64,000 bases of DNA. It comes from Bacteroidota bacterium (GTDB lineage Bacteria > Bacteroidota > Bacteroidia > AKYH767-A > OLB10). Location of the stretch: assembly GCA_031409815.1 (NCBI GenBank), contig JANNXV010000011.1, positions 7,148 to 71,147 on the forward strand. Direction: 5' to 3'. Positions 4,100 through 52,541 of this stretch are shown piece by piece (the stretch's first letter is position 1; every line of letters starts with the position of its first letter). A model generated the notes under the pieces. It did not search any database. It was not told the DNA's origin and worked only from the letters and a program-made list of their open reading frames with translations. The position numbers and the translations under genes are program-made.

Positions 4100-5360
4100 G
4101 TTTGGTGGAGCATCGGTGAAAGATGCAGCGGGAGTAAAAAATGTTGCAACTGTTTTGCAATTGTTTCCTAACCAGGATTTAGTGGTGGTGATTTCTGCGA
4201 TGGGAAAAACAACCAACGCCTTGGAAAAAGTGGTGCATGCATATTTTCACGAGAAAGAAATGGCGCATCTGATGTTGGAAGAAGTAAGAAGCTATCATCG
4301 CAGCATTATGGACGATTTATTTGCTGATTCAACACACCCGATATTTGAAAAAGTAAATAATTTTTTGGTGGAGATTGACTGGGTGCTGGAAGAAGAACCA
4401 CGCAGCTATGGATTTGTATATGATCAGATTGTTTCCATCGGAGAATTGATTTCAACAACTATTGTAAGTGCGTACTTAAATTCAGTTGCCATAAAAAATG
4501 CCTGGCAGGATGTACGTGATGTTTTGCAAACCGACAATACGTATCGCGAAGCAAAAGTGAATTGGGAAATGAGCGGTGATTTAATCGGAAAAATAATTCC
4601 TCCGTTATTCAATAAAGAAAATCACATTGTTATCACTCAAGGTTTCATCGGCAGCACTTCTGAAAACTATACTTCTACCTTAGGAAGAGAAGGTTCGGAT
4701 TATACAGCATCCATATTTGCCTACCTTTTAAATGCAGAATCGGTAAGCATCTGGAAAGATGTGCCGGGTGTATTGAATGCTGATCCGAAATTTTTTAAGG
4801 ACGCACAAAAATTAGAACAGATTAGTTATCTCGATGCAATTGAGCTGGCATATTATGGTGCATCGGTCATTCATCCGAAAACAATTAAGCCGTTAGAAAA
4901 TAAAAATATTCCGTTGCATGTAAAATCATTTGTTAACCCATCTTCAAAAGGAACTTTGATTGCACGCGACCTTGAAACAAAACCTTTGGTGCCTTCTTTT
5001 ATTTTTAAAACAAACCAGGTGCTGATCAGTATCTCAGCAAAAGATTTTTCATTTATTGCAGAAGAAAACCTGAGTACTATTTTTTCCTGCTTTGCGGAGT
5101 GTGGTGTAAAGTTAAACCTGATGCAAAATTCTGCTATCAGCTTTTCTGTTTGTGTGGATGATGACGAAGAAAAATTACCCAAGCTTATCGAGTTATTAAA
5201 GAAAGACTACAAAGTGCTTTACAACAAAAATTTACAGTTATACACCATACGTCATTATTTTCCTTCAACAGTAGAAACACTTACTCACAACCGCGAAATA
5301 CTTTTGGAACAACGCAGCAGAAACACTGCGCAAATTGTGATGAAGGAAGAAGAGAAATAA
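4086..5360 (+). CDS. lysC: monofunctional aspartate kinase
   Basis: 424 aa. The N-terminus has the amino-acid kinase signature MKVFKFGGASV. The GSDYTA and DVPGVLNADP motifs are present, and the C-terminus has ACT-like regulatory domains. Confidence 0.85.
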   Translation: MKVFKFGGASVKDAAGVKNVATVLQLFPNQDLVVVISAMGKTTNALEKVVHAYFHEKEMAHLMLEEVRSYHRSIMDDLFADSTHPIFEKVNNFLVEIDWVLEEEPRSYGFVYDQIVSIGELISTTIVSAYLNSVAIKNAWQDVRDVLQTDNTYREAKVNWEMSGDLIGKIIPPLFNKENHIVITQGFIGSTSENYTSTLGREGSDYTASIFAYLLNAESVSIWKDVPGVLNADPKFFKDAQKLEQISYLDAIELAYYGASVIHPKTIKPLENKNIPLHVKSFVNPSSKGTLIARDLETKPLVPSFIFKTNQVLISISAKDFSFIAEENLSTIFSCFAECGVKLNLMQNSAISFSVCVDDDEEKLPKLIELLKKDYKVLYNKNLQLYTIRHYFPSTVETLTHNREILLEQRSRNTAQIVMKEEEK

Positions 5361-5366
5361 ATACTG

Positions 5367-7058
5367 TTATTCAGATTCTGATTTTGACCGCGGCTTACGT
5401 TTCGGTTTGTCAGATTCGGATTTAGGACTTTTACTCTTCCCTGATCCTGTCATCACTTTTAGCATATTAATTTCATCTTCTGATAAAAATCTCCATCTGC
5501 CGCGAGCTAAATCTTTTTTGGTGAGTCCTGCAAAAATCACACGGTCTAATTTTTTCACTTCGTAATCAAAGTGTTCAAATATTCTTCGAACAATGCGGTT
5601 TTTTCCGCTGTGTATTTCCACACCCACCATTGTTTTGTCGCCAGCACCTTCATCATCGTAAGCAATCTCATCCACTTTAATAAAACCATCTTCCAGTTCC
5701 ACACCTTCTGCAATAGCATTCATGTGTTCCTTTTTTAATGGCTTGTCTAATTCAACATGATACACTTTAAAAATATTGGAACTCGGATGCGTGAGTTTTT
5801 TGGTCATCTCACCATCGTTAGTAAGCATTAGCAAACCGGTAGTGTTTCTATCTAATCGACCTACCGGATAGAAGCGTTCTTTTCCGGCACTTTTTACCAA
5901 CTCCATCACAGTTTTCCTTTCCTGCGGATCATCGGTTGTTGTGATGTAATCTTTCGGCTTGTTCAAAATCAGGTAAACAAGCTTCTCGCTTTTCATACGC
6001 TCTCCGTTGTAGCGGATATCGTCATCAGCATATACTCTTGTTCCAAGCTCAATCACTGTTTCTCCATTCACACTAATCACTCCTGCTTCAATTAATTCAT
6101 CCGCTTCTCTTCGCGAACAAATGCCGGAGTTGGCAATAAAACGATTTAACCGAATGCCTTCTGTTTGTGTGGTGGTTGATTCAGTAGTCTTGCTTCTTTC
6201 GTTTTTACCGGGACGTTTAAATTCTTTCTTTTCATACGAACGGCTTTCTGTAGAACCAAAACGGGATGGTTTCCGGTCAGAAAATTTATTGTCTGTAAAA
6301 CGGGAACTACCTTCTGCTCGGCCACTTTTATTTTTTGAAAAACTCTTTTCCTCTTTATAAAACTTTCCGAAAGGCTTGCCCTCATTATTTTTTTTCTCTG
6401 CACGATAATTTCGCTCACCAGATTTTTTGCGGTCTTCTTTATTACTTCCTCTTCTGTCTTCACTAAAATTTCGGTCTCTGGGTGTTCTGCGTTCGTCACT
6501 ACTTCGCTCATTTCTGTCGCCACCAAAACTATTTTCTCTTGCCGGTCTGCGATCATCATTGCTGCGTTCACTTCGTTCTCCACCAAAACTTTTATCTCTA
6601 AATGGCTTACGTTCTCCTCCTTCTCTTTTATCCCCAAAACTTTTTTCTCTGAAAGGTTTGCGATCGCCACTTTCTCTTTTGTCGCCATAACTTATTTCTC
6701 TAACCGGCTTGCGATCATCGTTACGGCCTTCTCTTCTGTCGCTATCAAATTTTTTTTCTCTGAAAGGTTTGCGATCATCACCGGCTCTTCTGTTCTCCGT
6801 GTATCCGCCTTCGCGTCTGGGTGGTTTAGCATTTGAAAAACTTTTCCCATCTTTTTTATCTACACGCTTACGCATTGGCTTGCCATCCGATTTAGTCCAG
6901 CCCGCTTCCGATTTATCTGCATCGCGATATTTTTTAAACCCAGTGGCCGGTTTAACTTCTCTACTGCTATTAGGTCTCTTTTTATCGCGGCCCGAATCTT
7001 CGCGACCACCGCTGCGACCTTCTGAATTAGTTCTTCTCATTTGTTGTAAGTATTTCAA
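5367..7058 (-). CDS. rluB: RluB-type 23S rRNA pseudouridine synthase with long N-terminal Arg/Asp/Glu/Lys-rich tandem-repeat extension
   Basis: The C-terminal half carries an S4 domain (IRLNRFIANSGICSRREADELI) and the RsuA/RluB catalytic core (FYPVGRLDRNTTGLLMLTNDG). The N-terminal ~320 aa are low-complexity (RKPFREKSFGDKREGGE-like repeats), encoded by ~54-nt tandem repeats at ~6430-6800. Confidence 0.85.
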   Translation of the reverse strand: MKYLQQMRRTNSEGRSGGREDSGRDKKRPNSSREVKPATGFKKYRDADKSEAGWTKSDGKPMRKRVDKKDGKSFSNAKPPRREGGYTENRRAGDDRKPFREKKFDSDRREGRNDDRKPVREISYGDKRESGDRKPFREKSFGDKREGGERKPFRDKSFGGERSERSNDDRRPARENSFGGDRNERSSDERRTPRDRNFSEDRRGSNKEDRKKSGERNYRAEKKNNEGKPFGKFYKEEKSFSKNKSGRAEGSSRFTDNKFSDRKPSRFGSTESRSYEKKEFKRPGKNERSKTTESTTTQTEGIRLNRFIANSGICSRREADELIEAGVISVNGETVIELGTRVYADDDIRYNGERMKSEKLVYLILNKPKDYITTTDDPQERKTVMELVKSAGKERFYPVGRLDRNTTGLLMLTNDGEMTKKLTHPSSNIFKVYHVELDKPLKKEHMNAIAEGVELEDGFIKVDEIAYDDEGAGDKTMVGVEIHSGKNRIVRRIFEHFDYEVKKLDRVIFAGLTKKDLARGRWRFLSEDEINMLKVMTGSGKSKSPKSESDKPKRKPRSKSESE

Positions 7059-7432
7059 TCATCCAACTCACTGGAGTATGGATAAAAAGCATCTTTAATA
7101 TGATTTATCCTTGGATGATTTTGCACAAAGGTAATAGAGATGATGTCAAAGCGTACTTCACAGTGGAGGTTTTCTTGCTGAATGTAGGCATCGGCAGCAT
7201 TACTCAGCATCTTTTGCTTGTGTTTACCTACCGATTCTTCTGGCGTACCAAAGAAATCGCTGCTTCGTGTTTTTACCTCCACAATTACTAATTGATTGGA
7301 ATGCATGGCGATAAAATCAACTTCCGCTTTTAAGTTGCGCCAGTTTTGATGTAAAATAGCATAACCAGCCTCTTCCAAAAATATTCTGGCTATTGCTTCG
7401 CCTTGTTTGCCAAGTTCGTTGTGTTTTGCCAT
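7055..7432 (-). CDS. yraN: YraN family (UPF0102) endonuclease-like protein
   Basis: 125 aa with GEAIARIFLEEAGYAIL...VDFIA...LVIVEVKTR, a PD-(D/E)xK-like UPF0102 signature. Its 5' end overlaps the rluB start by 4 nt. Confidence 0.8.
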   Translation of the reverse strand: MAKHNELGKQGEAIARIFLEEAGYAILHQNWRNLKAEVDFIAMHSNQLVIVEVKTRSSDFFGTPEESVGKHKQKMLSNAADAYIQQENLHCEVRFDIISITFVQNHPRINHIKDAFYPYSSELDD

Positions 7433-7440
7433 TCTTGTGT

Positions 7441-7521
7441 GTGTCGTTGACTAAGTTAATTTGGTTGATTAAGTTAACTGAGTCAACCAAATTAACTGAG
7501 TCAACCAATCAACTTAATTAA
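7441..7521. repeat. array of the 17-mer TTAACTGAGTCAACCAA (two exact direct copies plus two to three degenerate inverted copies)
   Basis: Exact copies lie at 7474-7490 and 7492-7508. Inverted degenerate copies are GTTGACTAAGTTAA at 7445-7458 and TTGGTTGATTAAGTTAA at 7461-7477. The array sits between the ldcA stop and the yraN start, both on the minus strand. Confidence 0.6.
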
Positions 7522-8454
7522 CTATTTAAGAAATTTTAAGTCAACTGTTTCACTAACACTTAACTCAACATTTGCTCCCATTATCAACGCTAAATTTCTT
7601 TTCACATGTCCTGCCGGAAAATCAAAGCAAACAGGATAATTGTATTCATCCACATGCTCCCTGATTATTTCTTCTGCTGTTTTTCCAAAAGGAATGGTGT
7701 TGTCGCGCATATCACTCATTCCTCCAACAATCAGTCCGGCTAAATTTTGCAGTTTGCCACTTCGTTTCAGTTGCATCATCATGCGGTCAATATGATAAAG
7801 ATATTCATCTAAATCTTCGATGAAAAGAACTTTTCCTTTGGTGTCGATATCTGAAACACTTCCACTCAATGCATAGAGCAACGAAAGATTTCCTCCGCAT
7901 AAAATTCCTTTAGCATTTCCATTCTTGTTTAATGATTGATTATTTGAAGCAGAAAATTTGTAATGCAACGTCACTCCTGTAAAAGCTTTGCCAAGTGATT
8001 CAACAGCATCTTTATCAAACTTTTCATGTTGCATATTAAAAAGCATACAACCGTGAATACTTTGTGTTTGAAAATGGTTTTGCAGATGGTTATGAATCAC
8101 TGTCATATCACTATATCCAACCAACCATTTGGGATATTGTTTGAATTTTGAAAAATCAAGTTTGTCAATAATGCGCACTGTTCCATATCCACCACGCGCG
8201 CTGATGATTGCTTTTACACTTTTATCATCCAACATTGTTTGCAAATCTTTTGCCCGTTCTGCATCCGTACCTGAATATTGATTTTGTTCTTTAAAAATAT
8301 TTTCACCTAACCTCACATTGAAACCCCAGCCTTCTAAAATTTTTATTCCATCGGCTAATTCTTTAGCAGCAACTTTTCGTGCTGGTGCAACAATACCGAT
8401 GGTATCTCCTGGTTTTAGAAATTGGGGTTGTGTCACTTTGTATCTTTGATGCAA
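7522..8454 (-). CDS. ldcA: LD-carboxypeptidase (peptidase S66, muramoyltetrapeptide carboxypeptidase)
   Basis: 310 aa with GDTIGIVAPA, RGGYGTVRI and GYSDMTVIH, which are S66 Ser/His/Glu triad regions. Confidence 0.8.
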   Translation of the reverse strand: MHQRYKVTQPQFLKPGDTIGIVAPARKVAAKELADGIKILEGWGFNVRLGENIFKEQNQYSGTDAERAKDLQTMLDDKSVKAIISARGGYGTVRIIDKLDFSKFKQYPKWLVGYSDMTVIHNHLQNHFQTQSIHGCMLFNMQHEKFDKDAVESLGKAFTGVTLHYKFSASNNQSLNKNGNAKGILCGGNLSLLYALSGSVSDIDTKGKVLFIEDLDEYLYHIDRMMMQLKRSGKLQNLAGLIVGGMSDMRDNTIPFGKTAEEIIREHVDEYNYPVCFDFPAGHVKRNLALIMGANVELSVSETVDLKFLK

Positions 8455-8597
8455 AGAAAAAGGTTTATACTTTACAGTTGGAAGGCTCGATTCACAAGAG
8501 AGACTTTTGTTTGATATTTTTGCCTTCTCATTTCAAAGTTTAATTTGCGGATGTAAAATCAACTTTAAACTTTGAACCTTAAACTTTAAACGTATTT

Positions 8598-10706
8598 ATG
8601 TCCCGTTATCTCGTTACAGCTGCACTTCCCTATGCAAATGGCCCTGTTCACATTGGTCATATTGCAGGATGTTATTTGCCCGCTGATATTTATGTGCGAT
8701 ACCTTCGTCTGATTAATGAAGACGTGAAATTTATTTGTGGTTCAGATGAGCATGGTGTTCCCATTACCATAAAAGCTCGTAACGAAGGGGTAACTCCTCA
8801 GCAAATAGTTGATAAGTATCATAGTATGATGAAGAACTCTTTCGCTGAGTTTGGAATCTCGTTTGATATTTATTCGCGCACAACTAATAAAGTACATCAT
8901 GAAACGGCACAGACATTTTTTAAAAAGCTGTATGATGACAACGTTTTTACTGAAGAAGTTACTGAGCAATATTATGATGAGGAAGTAAAACAATTTTTAG
9001 CCGACCGTTATATTGAGGGCACTTGTCCGCGGTGTGGTTTTGCGCGTGCTTATGGTGATCAGTGCGAGAATTGCGGATCATCATTAAACCCGACTGATTT
9101 GATAAATCCTGTTTCAAAGCTTAGTGGAAAGGCTCCGGTATTGCGTAACACGAAAAATTGGTTTCTGCCATTAAACAAATTTGAAGCGGATTTAAAAAAA
9201 TGGATTGGCTCCCACCAGGAAGACTGGAAAGTAAATGTGTATGGTCAGTGCATGAGTTGGCTGAACACAGGTTTGCAACCACGTGCAATGACGCGTGACC
9301 TGGATTGGGGGGTGAAAGTTCCGTTGCCTGATACGGAAGGAAAAGTTTTGTATGTGTGGTTTGATGCACCGATTGGTTACATCTCTGCAACGAAAGAGCT
9401 GCTACCAAACGACTGGGAAAAATATTGGAAGGATAAAGATTCAAAACTCATTCATTTTATCGGCAAGGACAATATTGTTTTTCATTGTTTGATATTTCCC
9501 GCCATGTTGAAAGCGCATGGCGATTATTTGTTGCCGACCAATGTTCCTGCCAATGAGTTCTTAAATTTAGAAGGAGATAAAATTTCTACTTCGCGCAACT
9601 GGGCGGTGTGGTTGCATGAGTACCTGATTGATTTTAAAGACAAGCAGGATGTGTTGCGATATGTATTATGTGCAACTGCTCCCGAAACAAAAGACAATGA
9701 TTTTACCTGGAAAGATTTTCAGGCGCGAAACAATAATGAGTTGGTTGCAGTGTTCGGAAATTTTGTGAATCGAACATTGGTGCTTACTCAAAAATATTTT
9801 GAAGGAAAAATTCCTCCACATCACAAGCTGATTGATGCTGACCAGGATTGTATCTCTGCAATACAAGCAGCAAAAAGAAACATTAGCGACAGCATTGAAA
9901 AATTCCGTTTCCGTGAAGCGTTGAATGAACTGATGACGTTAGCGCGTGTCGGAAATAAATATTTAGCCGACACCGAACCATGGAAAGTCTATAAAACAGA
10001 TCCTCAACGTGTAGAAACTATTTTATACATCGCATTAGAAATTACCGCTGCACTTGCTGCATTGTGTGAGCCATTTCTTCCTCATACATCAGCAAGCTTG
10101 TATGCCATGCTCAATCTTGAAAAAGTAGATTGGGTAAAAGATTTGACCGGACAAATAATAAAACCCGGACATGCTTTAGGTGAAGTAAAATTATTATTTG
10201 AAAAAATTGAAGACGAAATGATGGACAAGCAAGTGGAGAAGCTACATGCTTCGAAAGCAGTGAATGCACAGCAGTCGGCAGTTGTCAGTGAAAAGGGGAC
10301 AATTGAAAAAAATGCTTCGACTGTGCTCAGCATGACCCAAGAGCCACAGGTCACACTGAGCGAAGTCGAAGTGTTGAAACCCGAAACTTCCTTCGATGAT
10401 TTCAGCAAAATGGATTTGCGTGTGGCAACTATTATCGCTGCTGAAAAAGTGGAGAAAGCTGATAAATTATTAAAGCTTACGCTTGATACCGGCATTGACC
10501 AGCGCACTGTTGTGAGTGGAATTGCATTGAACTACAAACCCGAAGAAATAATAGGACAACGCGTAACACTACTTGCAAATCTTGCTCCACGAAAAATCCG
10601 TGGTATCGAATCGAAGGGAATGATTTTGATGGCGGAGAATGAAAAAGGGGAATTGTGTTTTATTGCTCCGACTAAGGAGTTTGGGAATGGGAGTGGGATA
10701 AGCTAA
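8598..10706 (+). CDS. metG: methionyl-tRNA synthetase with C-terminal EMAP/tRNA-binding domain
   Basis: 702 aa with HIGH ([11 protein letters not shown]), a zinc knuckle (CPRCGF...CENCG) and KMSKS-like motifs. A C-terminal tRNA-binding domain follows ([22 protein letters not shown]). Confidence 0.95.
10334..10371 (+). repeat. remnant of the GTCATGCTGAGCGAAGTCGAAGC hairpin family embedded in-frame in metG linker
   Basis: GCTCAGCATGACCC at 10325-10338 and CTGAGCGAAGTCGAAG at 10356-10371 match the left and right arms of the 14193-14250 hairpin. Together they are translated as [17 protein letters not shown]. Confidence 0.55.
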
Positions 10707-15731: not shown

Positions 15732-17390
15732 ATGACAAAACAATTACTTTACACATTAATACTTGGTTTTTCTTTTTATTACTCTCAATCACAAACTTTA
15801 ACGGTTAGCACTTCACAATTAAATTTTGGAATTACTTATGAAAACGCACCGGATAGTTTACAACTCACCATTACTAATAATCTTGGAAAAACAGTTAACG
15901 TAACCGGATTTCGTTTTTATACTATTTATGGTCAGCCTGCCTTCTCTTGTTCCAATTCAAATTTTAGTATCGCAGATGGAAGTTCTCAAACTGTCTGGAT
16001 AAAATTTGCTCCAAAGCATAATATTTATCATAATTCAGAATTAGTAATTGAGAATGATGCGCAGCGAGGATATGTAAGCGTAGATTTGTTAGGGCAAGGG
16101 AGATATTCAAAAGCATATTATGCAGCAAGTGAAAATTTGGAAGAGGAATCGTTAAAAACAAATTTGCATAATACAACCGGAGTTGGATACACTATTCTTT
16201 TTTATAATCCTGCGCGCGACACCATGTTTATGTGGCTCGACAATCAAAAAGTAAATGGACAAGGTGCTTCACAAAACACACTTGAATGTGTTTACACGGG
16301 TCGTCAGGCAATCGGATATTTAAATCGCTCCGATTGCCAAACCAACGATATGTTTAATACTGAACACACTTTTCCTCAGGGATTATTCAGTAGCCTTGAA
16401 CCGATGAAAAGTGATTTGCACCATCTATTTCCTACGGATGATGTTGCCAATAATACAAGAGCCAGTTATCCTTTTGGAGTTGTAACAAATGCAACCTGGA
16501 GTGTAGGTGGTTCCAAGTTCGATAATAACACAAATATTTTTGAACCGCGCGATCAACATAAAGGTGCAACAGCAAGAGCGATGTTATACTTTGTAATGCG
16601 TTATCAGAACTACAATAATTTTTTAAATTCACAGGAAAGTATTTTGAAAACATGGAATCATAATTTTCTTCCCTCAACAGTTGAACTCAATCGCAATGAT
16701 GGTATTTATGCTGTTCAAGGAAACCGTAATCCTTTTGTTGATTATCCTCAGTTTGCTGATCGTATCACCTCTTTTTCCTCCACTTCAGTTGCTCCCACCA
16801 CATTTTCGATGGACGAAACTCAGAACGAAATCAATTACGGTTTTGTATTAAGCAGCACAAATACAGTTTATCATTATGTAATTGTGAACAATGGAAATCA
16901 AAATATTCAGTTCAGTAATTTTAGTTTAAGCAATGCTGCGATTTTAAGTTTTAACGGGGGTAGTGGAACTAACGCTTCACTTAATCCCGGAGAAGCATTA
17001 GGTGTGGATATTGATTTGCATCCTTCTTCTTTTGGGATGATAAATGAGACATTAAATTTTCAAACCAATGTACCGGGATCTGCTACTGTGCAGGTTCCAA
17101 TTCTGGCACAGTCAACTGCTGTGGGCGTGGCAGAAATTAATTCGTCATCAACCATAAATATTTATCCTAACCCGGTTGTTGATGAATTGGAAGTTACCGG
17201 TTTCAACTTTAATGTTGGCGATGAGATAAAAATGGTAAACGCACTAGGAAAGGAAACAAAGTCGGAAAGTGTAAATACTAAAATTTCAAATCTGAGGCTT
17301 CGAACTACAGACCTGGCACAGGGAGTTTATTTTTTAATGACCTATCGCAACAATCAGTTAATTGCAAAGGCTCCATTTGTTAAATACTAA
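15732..17390 (+). CDS. secreted endonuclease I family nuclease with T9SS C-terminal sorting domain
   Basis: 552 aa with a signal peptide. FNTEHTFPQ...DLHHLFPTDDVANNTRASYPFG resembles the Endonuclease I (EndA/NucM) active-site blocks. The last ~80 aa (IYPNPVVDELEV...GVYFLMTYRNNQLIAKAPFVKY) match the Por/T9SS CTD pattern. Confidence 0.6.
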   Translation: MTKQLLYTLILGFSFYYSQSQTLTVSTSQLNFGITYENAPDSLQLTITNNLGKTVNVTGFRFYTIYGQPAFSCSNSNFSIADGSSQTVWIKFAPKHNIYHNSELVIENDAQRGYVSVDLLGQGRYSKAYYAASENLEEESLKTNLHNTTGVGYTILFYNPARDTMFMWLDNQKVNGQGASQNTLECVYTGRQAIGYLNRSDCQTNDMFNTEHTFPQGLFSSLEPMKSDLHHLFPTDDVANNTRASYPFGVVTNATWSVGGSKFDNNTNIFEPRDQHKGATARAMLYFVMRYQNYNNFLNSQESILKTWNHNFLPSTVELNRNDGIYAVQGNRNPFVDYPQFADRITSFSSTSVAPTTFSMDETQNEINYGFVLSSTNTVYHYVIVNNGNQNIQFSNFSLSNAAILSFNGGSGTNASLNPGEALGVDIDLHPSSFGMINETLNFQTNVPGSATVQVPILAQSTAVGVAEINSSSTINIYPNPVVDELEVTGFNFNVGDEIKMVNALGKETKSESVNTKISNLRLRTTDLAQGVYFLMTYRNNQLIAKAPFVKY

Positions 17391-17426
17391 GTCACTCAAT
17401 TAAATTATTTTTGCCGCCAATATCCT

Positions 17427-17498
17427 GGTCTCGTAGTTCAATGGATAGAATAGAAGTTTCCTAAACTTTTGATGCAGGTTCGATTCCTGTCGAGACTA
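17427..17498 (+). tRNA. tRNA-Arg (anticodon CCT)
   Basis: Manual cloverleaf fold. The acceptor stem is GGTCTCG/CGAGACT with a G1-U72 wobble. The D-arm is GTTC...GAAT. The anticodon stem is GAAGT/ACTTT with loop TTCCTAA. The T-arm is GCAGG-TTCGATT-CCTGT, and the discriminator is A. Confidence 0.8.
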
Positions 17499-17512
17499 CA
17501 AAAAATGGGAGT

Positions 17513-17755
17513 ATGTATTATGCATACGTTTTGAAAAGTAAAAATCATGACTATTATTACAAAGGTCATTGTCATGATTTGCAAAAACGACTAACCCAAC
17601 ATAATTCCGGGATGACTGCATCCATACGACCTTATATCCCGTTTGAAATAGTTTATACTGAAAGTTTTGAATCGGAAGCAGATGCAATTCAAAGAGAAAA
17701 ATATTTTAAGTCTGCTGCCGGAAGAAGATATTTAAAAAGGAAAATTGTTCCGTAG
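17513..17755 (+). CDS. small GIY-YIG nuclease family protein (UPF0213/YhbQ-like)
   Basis: 80 aa. YYAYVLKS and YYYKGHCHDLQKRLTQHNSG are the GIY and YIG motifs. A conserved Glu lies in the FEIVYTESFES...REKYFK block. The gene sits between a tRNA-Arg and its degenerate duplicate. Confidence 0.85.
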   Translation: MYYAYVLKSKNHDYYYKGHCHDLQKRLTQHNSGMTASIRPYIPFEIVYTESFESEADAIQREKYFKSAAGRRYLKRKIVP

Positions 17756-17873
17756 CTCAATTCTCGTTCGAACGAACTATTCGGTACAGACGGGGAATAG
17801 AAGTTTCCTAAACTTTTGATGCAGGTTCCCTGCCCGAATGAATTCGTTCAGGCGGGGATTCCTGTCGGGACTA
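17747..17873 (+). other. degenerate duplicate of tRNA-Arg(CCT) interrupted by two mutually complementary insertions (tRNA-like remnant / att-like repeat)
   Basis: 17796-17828 is identical to tRNA positions 23-55. 17858-17873 (ATTCCTGTCGGGACTA) matches the tRNA 3' end with one change. The 5' GTTCCGTAGCTCAAT resembles the tRNA 5' end. The insertions at 17762-17795 and 17829-17857 are roughly reverse-complementary (GAACGAA..ATTCGG..CAG versus CTG..CCGAAT..TTCGTTC). Confidence 0.6.
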
Positions 17874-17880
17874 CAAAAAA

Positions 17881-17909
17881 GGGCTGACAAAAATTTTGTT
17901 GGCCCTTTT
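17881..17909 (+). terminator. rho-independent terminator
   Basis: GGGCTGACAAAA-ATTTTGTTGGCCC forms a hairpin followed by TTTTC. Confidence 0.7.
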
Positions 17910-19290: not shown

Positions 19291-19539
19291 ATGCCTGAGA
19301 TAAGTCGCTTTTATGGTTTAATAATCTACATGTTTTTTAATGATCATGTTCCCCCTCATTTTAAAGTGAAATATGCGGAGTATGAAGCCAATGTTTTAAT
19401 TGAGAACGGCAATGTGCTGAATGGAGATTTACCTACAGGTAAATTAAAACTTGTTCAAGCCTGGGCAGAAATACATAAAACAGAATTAATGGAAATGTGG
19501 AATACAAAAGATTTTCATAAAATAAATCCTCTTCAATAA
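19291..19539 (+). CDS. DUF4160 family small protein
   Basis: 82 aa. MPEISRFYGLIIYMFFNDHVPPHFKV matches the DUF4160 N-terminal block as remembered (MP.IS.FYGI.I.MY..DH.PPHFH). Not verified by search. Confidence 0.6.
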   Translation: MPEISRFYGLIIYMFFNDHVPPHFKVKYAEYEANVLIENGNVLNGDLPTGKLKLVQAWAEIHKTELMEMWNTKDFHKINPLQ

Positions 19540-19820
19540 TGGAACGGGTAGTTGAAATAACTGAGATTGGTAAATATTACTGTGTATGCAGGTTTAATAA
19601 CGGCACCATTAAAAAAATAAATATTGAACCATTAATTAAATCTCACGCTAACAAATTAACCCGCAACCTTTTTGACTTCTCCATTTTCAGTGAAGTTAAA
19701 ATTGGAGATGTTGGACAATTGTATTGGGCTAATACTTCAACTATGAAAGATGAAAAAGGAAATATTATTCCTTGTGAATATGATATATCTCCTGAATTTA
19801 TTTTCAATAACGCTGTTTAG
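19539..19820 (+). CDS. DUF2442 family small protein
   Basis: 93 aa. Its start overlaps the stop of the upstream gene by 1 nt (TAATG). The size and the YWANTS...PEFIF block are consistent with DUF2442, the usual partner of DUF4160. Confidence 0.5.
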   Translation: MERVVEITEIGKYYCVCRFNNGTIKKINIEPLIKSHANKLTRNLFDFSIFSEVKIGDVGQLYWANTSTMKDEKGNIIPCEYDISPEFIFNNAV

Positions 19821-52468: not shown

Positions 52469-52539
52469 GGTCGTGTGGCCGAGCGGTTAGGCAGAGGTCT
52501 GCAAAACCTCCTACAGCGGTTCAAATCCGCTCGCGACCT
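52469..52539 (+). tRNA. tRNA-Cys (anticodon GCA)
   Basis: Manual fold. The acceptor is GGTCGTG/CGCGACC. The 3-bp D-stem is GCC/GGC. The anticodon stem is GAGGT/ACCTC with loop CTGCAAA. The T-arm is AGCGG-TTCAAAT-CCGCT, and the discriminator is T. Confidence 0.75.
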
Positions 52540-52541
52540 CA

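Follow-up and report, generated by a model that had tools for sequence, protein, structure and literature searches.

How does a gene for an 80-residue nuclease come to lie between a tRNA gene and a broken copy of the same tRNA gene? The question is raised by a stretch of 64,000 nucleotides from a Bacteroidota bacterium (assembly GCA_031409815.1, contig JANNXV010000011.1; henceforth the window), in which an intact tRNA-Arg(CCT) gene is followed by a small open reading frame (ORF) of the GIY-YIG nuclease family and then by a second, interrupted copy of the tRNA (henceforth tRNA*). An earlier note on this DNA, made from the letters alone, had proposed a mobile cassette or a decayed island at this site. 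The reading that we favour, and to which we give about an even chance of being right, is that the module is a compact selfish cassette that resides in tRNA-Arg(CCU/CCG) genes without an integrase, carries a minimal Slx1-like nuclease, and spreads and rearranges by recombination within the tRNA repeats, its spare tRNA copy having been colonised by palindromes.

The tRNA-ORF-tRNA* module in the window

Both ARAGORN and Rfam call the first tRNA, which the earlier note had correctly read as intact, and the UPF0213-type ORF likewise begins where it had been placed. The second copy, called by neither program, had been taken for a degenerate tRNA-like sequence that overlaps the stop codon of the ORF. 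The overlap is real; the sequence itself is a full-length tRNA broken by two discrete palindromic inserts. The 5' 16 nt of the tRNA are retained (17746-17761, 13/16 identical), and the first 10 nt double as the end of the ORF, supplying its final two codons and its stop, with the stop TAG (17753-17755) at positions 8-10 of tRNA*. Four tRNA bases (ATAG) are missing at insertion 1. The core that follows had been given as 33 nt identical to the intact gene; the match is exact, and its length is 34 nt (17795-17828 = 17448-17481), spanning the 3' strand of the D-stem, the anticodon arm, the variable loop, the 5' strand of the T-stem and three T-loop bases, and 100 shuffles gave no comparable match. 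Behind insertion 2, the repeat that had been counted as 16 nt exists and extends over 27 nt at 93% identity (17857-17883 versus 17482-17508), reaching 10 nt beyond the tRNA end. The duplication in the window runs from tRNA position 1 through 72, plus these 10 nt, and the acceptor strands of the copy (TGTTCCG/CGGGACT) leave 6/7 acceptor pairs. Thus, the degeneracy of the second copy comes mainly from palindromic mini-elements that inserted into it, not from random decay. The terminator that had been placed behind it was found by inverted-repeat search and RNA folding, having been missed by a simple consensus terminator scan. Coordinates are collected in Table 1.

Table 1. Features of the module and its immediate flanks in the window
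Feature	Position	Strand	Basis
Bacteroidetes-type -7 promoter box TATTTTTG (TAnnTTTG), putative, 13 nt 5' of the tRNA	17406..17413	+	read from sequence
Intact tRNA-Arg(CCT)	17427..17498	+	ARAGORN 17427-17499; Rfam RF00005, 65.6 bits; acceptor GGTCTCG/CGAGACT (T5-A68)
A-rich spacer, 14 nt, tRNA 3' end to ATG	17499..17512	+	read from sequence
80-aa GIY-YIG nuclease ORF, Slx1/UPF0213 lineage	17513..17755	+	ORF listing; Pfam PF01541
tRNA*, second tRNA-Arg(CCT) copy, full-length, interrupted	17746..17873	+	alignment allowing cheap long insertions
Insertion 1, D-loop at conserved GG, decayed family-D palindrome	17762..17794	+	aligns with D-loop hairpins of L008 and L040
34-nt core, tRNA positions 22-55, identical to 17448-17481	17795..17828	+	repeat finding; shuffles
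Insertion 2, T-loop after C56, intact 28-nt family-T1 palindrome CCTGCCCGAATGAATTCGTTCAGGCGGG	17829..17856	+	palindrome search
tRNA* 3' end and the 10 nt beyond it, likewise duplicated (CAAAAAAGGG)	17857..17883	+	93% identical to 17482-17508
Terminator-like stem-loop, then UUUU	17877..17909	+	15-bp stem, -18.3 kcal/mol, z = -4.1

Recurrence of the module and its gain or loss in relatives

Scanning one genome per species (185,579 species genomes), we obtained 218 matching stretches and fetched 80 loci, which hold 88 ORFs; 57 well-aligned modules were used for the tRNA* statistics. The carriers among the 80 loci belong to Chitinophagales, Cytophagales (Algoriphagus, Cecembia, and Indibacter) and Sphingobacteriales. 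A recurrent linkage of small GIY-YIG ORFs with tRNA genes had been suspected, and it is borne out in a form specific to tRNA-Arg: about 65 of the 80 loci have an intact tRNA-Arg (anticodon CCT or CCG) whose 3' end lies 10-20 nt 5' of the ATG, and no other anticodon was seen beside the ORF in any of them. The spacer measures 12-15 nt in 41 of 64 modules. At its other end the ORF is fused in frame to the second tRNA copy in about 60 of the 88 cases, and in the 57 well-aligned modules the stop TAG coincides with positions 8-10 of tRNA*. Because the acceptor stem encodes them, the two C-terminal residues differ between modules (VP, AS, VS, and others). The tRNA* backbone is identical to the real tRNA-Arg at 68-73 of 73 positions in the 57 modules. 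Of these 57 copies, 56 are interrupted by one or more insertions of at least 15 nt, most often at the GG of the D-loop (position 16/17, 52 copies) or in the T-loop after C56 (position 55, 18 copies), with further insertions at positions 48-50 (eight) and 38 (four).

The module also occurs in amplified and reduced forms. Tandem arrays of ORF plus interrupted tRNA have a period of about 400 nt (L012, with three copies, L008, and L064), while in a compact form with a period of 294 nt the ORF starts right after tRNA position 31-33 (L160, L076, and others). Mini-units without an ORF precede the intact tRNA in other loci (L078, L064 with three, L137, and L050). In each, a hairpin separates tRNA 1-17 from tRNA 18-30, and what is left of the ORF 3' end comes last. 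Truncated ORFs occur as well. Either copy may be the broken one (the intact tRNA of L076 is the downstream copy), and one intact tRNA is always retained. In L014 and L020, from two Algoriphagus genomes, two variants of tRNA-Arg(CCT), A and B, are arranged reciprocally, as B-ORF-interrupted A in one case and A-ORF-interrupted B in the other; the interrupted copy is therefore not always copied from its upstream neighbour. In L137 (480-1200), the duplicated unit takes in the tRNA's own terminator, which places the ORF 3' of a terminator-like hairpin, and two ORF-less mini-units lie 5' of the intact tRNA-Arg(CCG).

The earlier note had read the tRNA segments as attL/attR-like products of integration into a tRNA 3' end, which would make the module the remnant of an integrase island with the GIY-YIG gene as its last cargo. 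The 10 nt duplicated past the tRNA 3' end would suit such an origin, as would a relative in which an integrase island does use tRNA-Arg(CCT) as its att site (L202, see below). However, the duplication is not confined to a 3' segment but starts at position 1 and takes in the entire tRNA, and fusion in frame to positions 1-10 of the copy occurs in about 60 independent loci, none with an adjoining integrase. Indeed, no recombinase adjoins the module in the 80 loci inspected, and none lies near it within the window, where the flanking genes are thrC, a secreted endonuclease I, a Kelch-repeat protein, DUF4160 and metK, in agreement with the note's statement that the cassette lacks an integrase. Nor is the ORF in decay, as its purifying selection indicates (see below). 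We consider an island remnant very improbable and effectively refuted by the recurrent, precise, integrase-less architecture.

A search for empty sites in relatives had been suggested, and the neighbourhood of the tRNA made it feasible. The endonuclease I gene (552 aa, carrying a type IX secretion system (T9SS) sorting signal, window 15732-17390) ends 37 nt 5' of the tRNA, so that its orthologues mark the same chromosomal site; we give relatives by the identity of this gene. It is a conserved neighbour with or without the cassette and hence unrelated to it. The closest relative (L201, 93%) carries the window's module with identical inserts and, at D-loop 17^18 of the intact tRNA, an extra ORF-less mini-unit of 106 nt (5697-5802, to be compared with window 17427-17443), whose family-D hairpin nests the exact reverse complement of window 17829-17856, the T1 palindrome; the terminator stem-loop is also found 3' of tRNA* in this relative. 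By contrast, two relatives have an empty site: L204 (77%) shares the 5' flank and has a lone intact tRNA-Arg(CCT) followed by unrelated sequence, and in L206 (69%) a lone intact tRNA-Arg(CCT) is likewise followed by unrelated sequence. In L202 (77%), the tRNA is followed by an island (5345-9308) that contains an HTH_17 gene (7656-7985) and ends in a tyrosine integrase gene (8064-9308, minus strand), which makes tRNA-Arg(CCT) a classical integration site as well. More distant orthologues of the upstream gene (L207-L209) have lost synteny and gave no information on the site. The site is thus not arranged identically in all relatives: it is occupied, empty, expanded or holds an island, and the occupied, empty and expanded states mean that the cassette was gained or lost here and is still changing between close relatives. 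The tRNAs of the empty sites and the 3' half of the window tRNA* are of the C5/G68 type (G68), as opposed to T5/A68 in the intact tRNA of the window, a pattern that fits, but does not prove, a recombination junction inside the tRNA.

Elsewhere in the window, the sole other tRNA gene, tRNA-Cys(GCA) at 52469-52540, has no GIY-YIG ORF, duplicate copy or palindromes nearby. Between the Kelch-repeat gene and metK (19291-19820), DUF4160 (82 aa) and an overlapping 93-aa ORF without a Pfam match form a pair that recalls small two-gene modules of the toxin-antitoxin type.

Nuclease, palindromes and the proposed mechanism

Before assigning a role to the inserts, we asked what tRNA* itself might be. A functional product, either a tRNA from which the inserts are removed like introns or an independently conserved structured RNA, would accord with the near-identity of the backbone to a real tRNA and with the stable fold of the window copy (-50 kcal/mol, z = -3.9). 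Yet the acceptor stem is fully paired (7/7) in just 16 of the 57 tRNA* copies, versus all 57 intact reference tRNAs, and some copies are cut down to positions 1-31. From copy to copy the inserts differ in how many there are, where they sit, which family they belong to and which way they face, and some are nested or in tandem arrays. Nor did a known RNA family emerge: apart from the tRNA model, Rfam 15 returned only chance-level matches for the window region at E-values up to 10, and in 10 related loci the tRNA model was the only match. Since an intact tRNA always stands alongside, gene conversion with it explains the backbone identity, and we find a functional tRNA* hardly credible. Differences from the neighbouring intact tRNA cluster at positions 1-7, the strand that also codes for the protein C-terminus. 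By these alignments tRNA* is a relic that is not maintained as a tRNA, its likeness to the real tRNA being most simply kept by such gene conversion. The minimum-energy fold of the window copy pairs insertions 1 and 2 in a long-range helix, which we rejected as a feature in its own right: the inserts of other copies are self-contained palindromes, differing in number, position and orientation, and the helix is a by-product of the fact that insertions 1 and 2 are two related palindromes.

The inserts fall into a few families of GC-rich palindromes of 28-32 nt, found in both orientations. Family D (CCCGCCCGGCTGACGCCAGTCGGACGGG) usually sits in the D-loop, and families T1 (CCTGCCCGAATGAcTCGTTCAGGCGGG) and T2 (CCCGCCCGTACCGAACGGTACGTTCGGGCGGG) usually in the T-loop, T2 also occurring as its reverse complement at position 50 or 55. 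The canonical family-D sequence is CCCGCCCGGCTGA(A)CGCC(A/G)T(T/C)CGGACGGG; insertion 1 is about two-thirds identical to it by hand count, with many C-to-T changes, and is for this reason taken as a decayed copy. Insertion 2 occupies the same T-loop position as T1 copies in L008, L040, L064, L071 and others. Palindromes may be nested in one another (L030, L049, L069, L012, and L201) or stand in short tandem runs (L028, L070, L021, and L052). Because they are dispersed, nested and present in both orientations, they are tiny mobile elements in their own right. An unbiased scan found the exact family-D 27-mer in at least 120 stretches of metagenome contigs and in none of the viral contigs. Among 131 classified occurrences, 59 lie in tRNA-Arg D-loops (44 with a GIY-YIG gene within 600 nt) and 72 elsewhere, the latter nearly always with a G before and a G after; this is a massive concentration at a single tRNA position.

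In the sequence scanned, no REP-like swarm was seen, and the palindromes are sparse outside modules. They are almost absent from 428 kb of module flanks, and a handful were found in about 400 kb around the metagenome hits. Of 68 candidate palindromes, 44 cluster immediately 3' of the ORFs, in 7% of the sequence, most others lying in adjacent mini-units. In the 64 kb of the window, insertion 2 is the sole hairpin of these families and the sole place where any of the four 8-mer hairpin cores occurs. The positions in D-, T- and anticodon loops and the nested copies prompted the idea that the hairpins target the loops of larger stem-loops; tested outside tRNAs, it was rejected, the junction falling in a predicted loop in 3 of 46 distinct contexts versus a background of 0.28.

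Three further observations concern palindromes at other loci. A 19-nt palindrome (CTCCCGACTTTCGGGACAG) just 3' of the family-D hairpin is present or absent between near-identical metagenome loci (L123, L127, and L140 versus L126, L150, and L175) and appears to be another tiny mobile insert. In L082, L092, L186, L097, L188 and L015, tRNA-Arg copies that bear the D hairpin have a different small palindrome, TCCCGACCTTTGGTTGGGA or TCCCGATAAATCGGGA, in place of the anticodon loop or within it. Finally, in several non-tRNA contexts the family-D hairpin stands between short tandem repeats (CACAAAG, GAACAAG, and GTGAATG; L103, L105, L139, L189, L086, L096, L128, L155, L099, L158, and L179), which recalls cyanobacterial small dispersed repeats among heptamer repeats.

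What kind of nuclease does the ORF encode? Residues 1-71 match the GIY-YIG model (Pfam PF01541) at E=3e-13, scoring 50.2 bits where the cut-off is 22.6; this is the sole domain above the Pfam threshold, and no NCBIfam model matches the protein. The catalytic Tyr, Tyr, Arg, His and Glu are conserved: across 25 sequences Y5, R26, H30 and E62 are invariant together with K17-G18, and Y16 is kept in at least 90%. The spacing Y5-Y16-R26-H30 parallels Y6-Y17-R27-H31 in I-TevI numbering. An AlphaFold model (predicted local distance difference test score, pLDDT, 94.7) has the element order E-E-H-E-H-H, a three-stranded sheet with flanking helices, and no structural element beyond the GIY-YIG domain; with 80 aa, the protein lacks a DNA-binding domain of the I-TevI/Seg type. 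A profile search of PDB sequences returned the UPF0213 proteins EF2693 (1ywl, 7e-7) and BH0048 (1zg2, 8e-5), the nearest solved proteins, and weakly Slx1; Foldseek gave template-modelling (TM) scores of about 0.70 for BH0048 and several Slx1 structures and about 0.51 for the I-TevI catalytic domain. The protein ends at residue 80, without the conserved C-terminal Asn. In a survey of the superfamily (PMC1564403), 1ywl and 1zg2 are placed in the Slx1 lineage, whose members are minimal domains without the C-terminal Asn, distinct from the homing-endonuclease/UvrC lineage. The window protein is thus, by sequence and model, a minimal nuclease of the Slx1/UPF0213 type (predicted activity), not of the I-TevI/Seg type. 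Of the earlier proposal of a homing-endonuclease-like mobile cassette, gain and loss without an integrase therefore stand, whereas the protein, with no DNA-binding domain, is not of the classical homing type.

More than 1000 relatives share 65-80% identity with the protein, almost all of them 80 aa long. The ORF shows pN 0.20 versus pS 0.80, with synonymous sites saturated, and dN/dS of about 0.18 on unsaturated pairs. Judged by these values, the ORF is old and under purifying selection, not the debris of a decayed island. In the protein tree, which is very short and star-like, vertical and horizontal descent cannot be told apart; tandem copies alone cluster clearly. Membership of a defence system (no PADLOC match) and a phage origin (no protein relative or family-D hairpin in IMG/VR and no PHROG match) were considered and rejected.

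We next considered expression. The box TATTTTTG conforms to TAnnTTTG, which we take to be the -7 consensus of Bacteroidetes promoters, and is the probable promoter of the whole unit. Its flank is invariant in L201, L202 and L204, and TAnnTTTG occurs within 45 nt 5' of the leading tRNAs in 30% of cases, versus 2.5% of random windows, and 5' of the ORF's ATG in 2 of 63. Because the box precedes the tRNA and not the ORF, the spacer is tight and a terminator follows tRNA*, the simplest reading is that tRNA, ORF and tRNA* would be co-transcribed from the tRNA promoter to the terminator. A hairpin is conserved 7 nt 3' of the stop codon. Were RNase P to cleave at position 1 of tRNA*, the stop codon would be lost from the message. 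RNase P reads the tRNA elbow in substrate recognition. The two hot spots of insertion, the D-loop GG and the T-loop after C56, are elbow partners, which suggests that the inserts may be favoured because they block tRNA-type processing.

One might see here a host-beneficial operon, in which a housekeeping or stress nuclease for DNA repair or RNA processing is run from the tRNA-Arg promoter, tRNA* and its hairpins are a mere 3' untranslated region, stabiliser or terminator, and gain and loss are ordinary gene loss. Strong purifying selection over an ancient divergence, a gene context that is always the same in three orders and the conserved hairpin past the stop codon all agree with this. So does the survey cited above, in which bacterial Slx1-like proteins are predicted to act in repair and one such domain is fused to a tRNA Gm18 methyltransferase (PMC1564403). 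A host operon would not be expected, however, to be as patchy as 218 stretches in 185,579 species genomes, to be missing at the orthologous site in three of five relatives or to sit at two different tRNA-Arg isoacceptor genes; and selfish repeats typically show what is seen here, tandem amplification along with truncated ORFs and ORF-less mini-units. We judge this explanation quite unlikely.

Under the selfish-cassette reading, the steps could be as follows. The ORF, without a promoter of its own, would be co-transcribed with the tRNA. The tRNA-ORF-tRNA arrangement would arise by recombination within the tRNA, either through homing-like break repair or through Campbell-type integration of a tRNA-plus-ORF segment, and unequal exchange between the tRNA repeats would then yield tandem arrays and ORF-less mini-units. 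A structure-specific nuclease of the Slx1 type may stimulate these recombination events by acting on tRNA genes or palindromes, where the DNA is structured. Palindromes in the redundant copy would be tolerated and probably favoured, as they break up a direct repeat able to delete the cassette. By disrupting the tRNA elbow, they would also make RNase P, which would cut 7 nt before the stop codon, spare the nuclease mRNA. If this is true, few self-contained selfish units known from bacterial chromosomes are as small as the module (about 330 bp, one tRNA plus one 80-aa nuclease), and the tRNA gene serves it as target, promoter and even stop codon. It would also give the bacterial UPF0213/Slx1-like proteins, which have solved structures and no known role, a genomic context and a testable function, and would tie a nuclease to tiny mobile palindromic inserts.

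Several points weigh against a selfish cassette. Saturated synonymous divergence and a star-like tree speak for long persistence, not recent sweeps, and long persistence would be equally expected of a homing parasite and of a resident that is domesticated or RAYT-like. With no DNA-binding domain and a place in the Slx1 lineage, the protein alone is not expected to home to a specific sequence. Were the enzyme to cut the tRNA gene itself, the intact upstream copy would still be exposed to it. The insertion boundaries are not exactly definable, because 3' synteny is broken at the empty sites. We infer the activity of the nuclease, its target, the transfer of the cassette and the mechanism as a whole. 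Unexpectedly, the D-loop palindrome is also conserved far beyond neutral sites, which passive colonisation fails to explain: 15 of 42 single-unit inserts are identical and their mean identity is 0.82, versus 51% of third codon positions differing.

Conservation of this degree is what a protein recognition site would show, and it favours a different account, in which the GIY-YIG protein cuts, and so mobilises or maintains, the 28-32-nt palindromes, and the nuclease gene resides in the tRNA-Arg module with its cognate palindromes on its flanks, much as in REP/RAYT systems. The tRNA copies would then be preferred palindrome landing pads beside the source of the enzyme. Palindromes are indeed hugely enriched beside the gene, almost half of the exact family-D hairpins (59/131) lie in tRNA-Arg D-loops, and T1 is confined to the module in the window lineage, with two identical copies in opposite orientations in L201. 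The gene persists long-term under purifying selection, as RAYTs do, and a predicted fold of the Slx1 type would be structure-specific on branched and stem-loop DNA. To our knowledge, though, GIY-YIG enzymes are hydrolytic, form no covalent intermediate and achieve no strand transfer alone. Moreover, the 72 other hairpin occurrences are in loci without a GIY-YIG gene nearby, although these loci are short, palindrome copy number outside modules is low in the sequence scanned, unlike that of REPs, and the duplication of the tRNA and its fusion to the ORF are left unexplained by such a partnership alone. We regard it as unlikely, though it is the main rival to the selfish cassette; if true, it would be a GIY-YIG counterpart of RAYT/REPIN, with a class of mobile palindromes not recognised before and a spare tRNA copy as their landing pad or reservoir, and would provide a candidate enzyme for very small palindromic repeats. 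The module also has a practical bearing on annotation: tRNA finders miss the interrupted tRNA-Arg copies, and the ORFs are labelled just 'GIY-YIG nuclease family protein'.

Comparison with known systems

Literature searches on GIY-YIG with tRNA-Arg, Bacteroidetes, Chitinophagaceae, UPF0213/YhbQ or RAYT turned up no description of the module, which appears to be undescribed before. Each known family that could be tested has some defining feature that the module lacks. The nearest parallel in gene order is segB of phage T4, a free-standing GIY-YIG homing endonuclease gene between tRNA-Arg and tRNA-Ile (PMC2988022). Like the module, Seg genes of T-even phages are small GIY-YIG ORFs between tRNA genes, without an intron or recombinase, and they are transcribed with their neighbours (as we infer for the module) and show presence/absence polymorphism between related genomes. 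Seg proteins, however, have C-terminal DNA-binding modules and belong to the homing-endonuclease/UvrC lineage, as opposed to the bare 80-aa domain of the Slx1/UPF0213 type encoded here. The module is also chromosomal, has no relative in viral contigs, duplicates the tRNA and fuses it to the ORF, and is associated with palindromes, all unlike Seg.

By sequence and structure, the best matches of the protein are UPF0213/YhbQ and eukaryotic Slx1, which share the minimal domain without the C-terminal Asn. For this group the survey reports no linkage to tRNA genes, duplication or association with palindromes (PMC1564403), in contrast to the module. Slx1 needs its RING domain and Slx4, whereas the module protein is the minimal domain. 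Islands inserted by integrases into tRNA genes resemble the module in the tRNA target, the direct tRNA repeats and the empty site in relatives; the module differs in having no recombinase, a wholly duplicated tRNA, a cargo of about 250 bp and tandem arrays.

In REP/REPIN-RAYT systems (PMC3116915, PMC2817692), as in the module, a low-copy nuclease gene that is long-persistent under purifying selection is flanked by short GC-rich palindromes also found elsewhere. The flanking in the module is RAYT-like: hairpins lie in tRNA* 3' of the ORF and, at many loci, also in mini-units 5' of it. RAYT is an HUH/Y1 transposase, however, not a GIY-YIG nuclease, and the palindromes of the module are unlike REPs in being low-copy in the sequence scanned and without a GTAG/CGTC head, while its gene is embedded in a duplicated tRNA gene. 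The small dispersed repeats of cyanobacteria described by Elhai and colleagues in 2008 are reportedly palindromic inserts of 20-30 nt that nest, neighbour short tandem repeats and are not known to have a transposase. The palindromes described here come from another phylum, have other sequences and, unlike those repeats, are tied to one nuclease gene and one tRNA.

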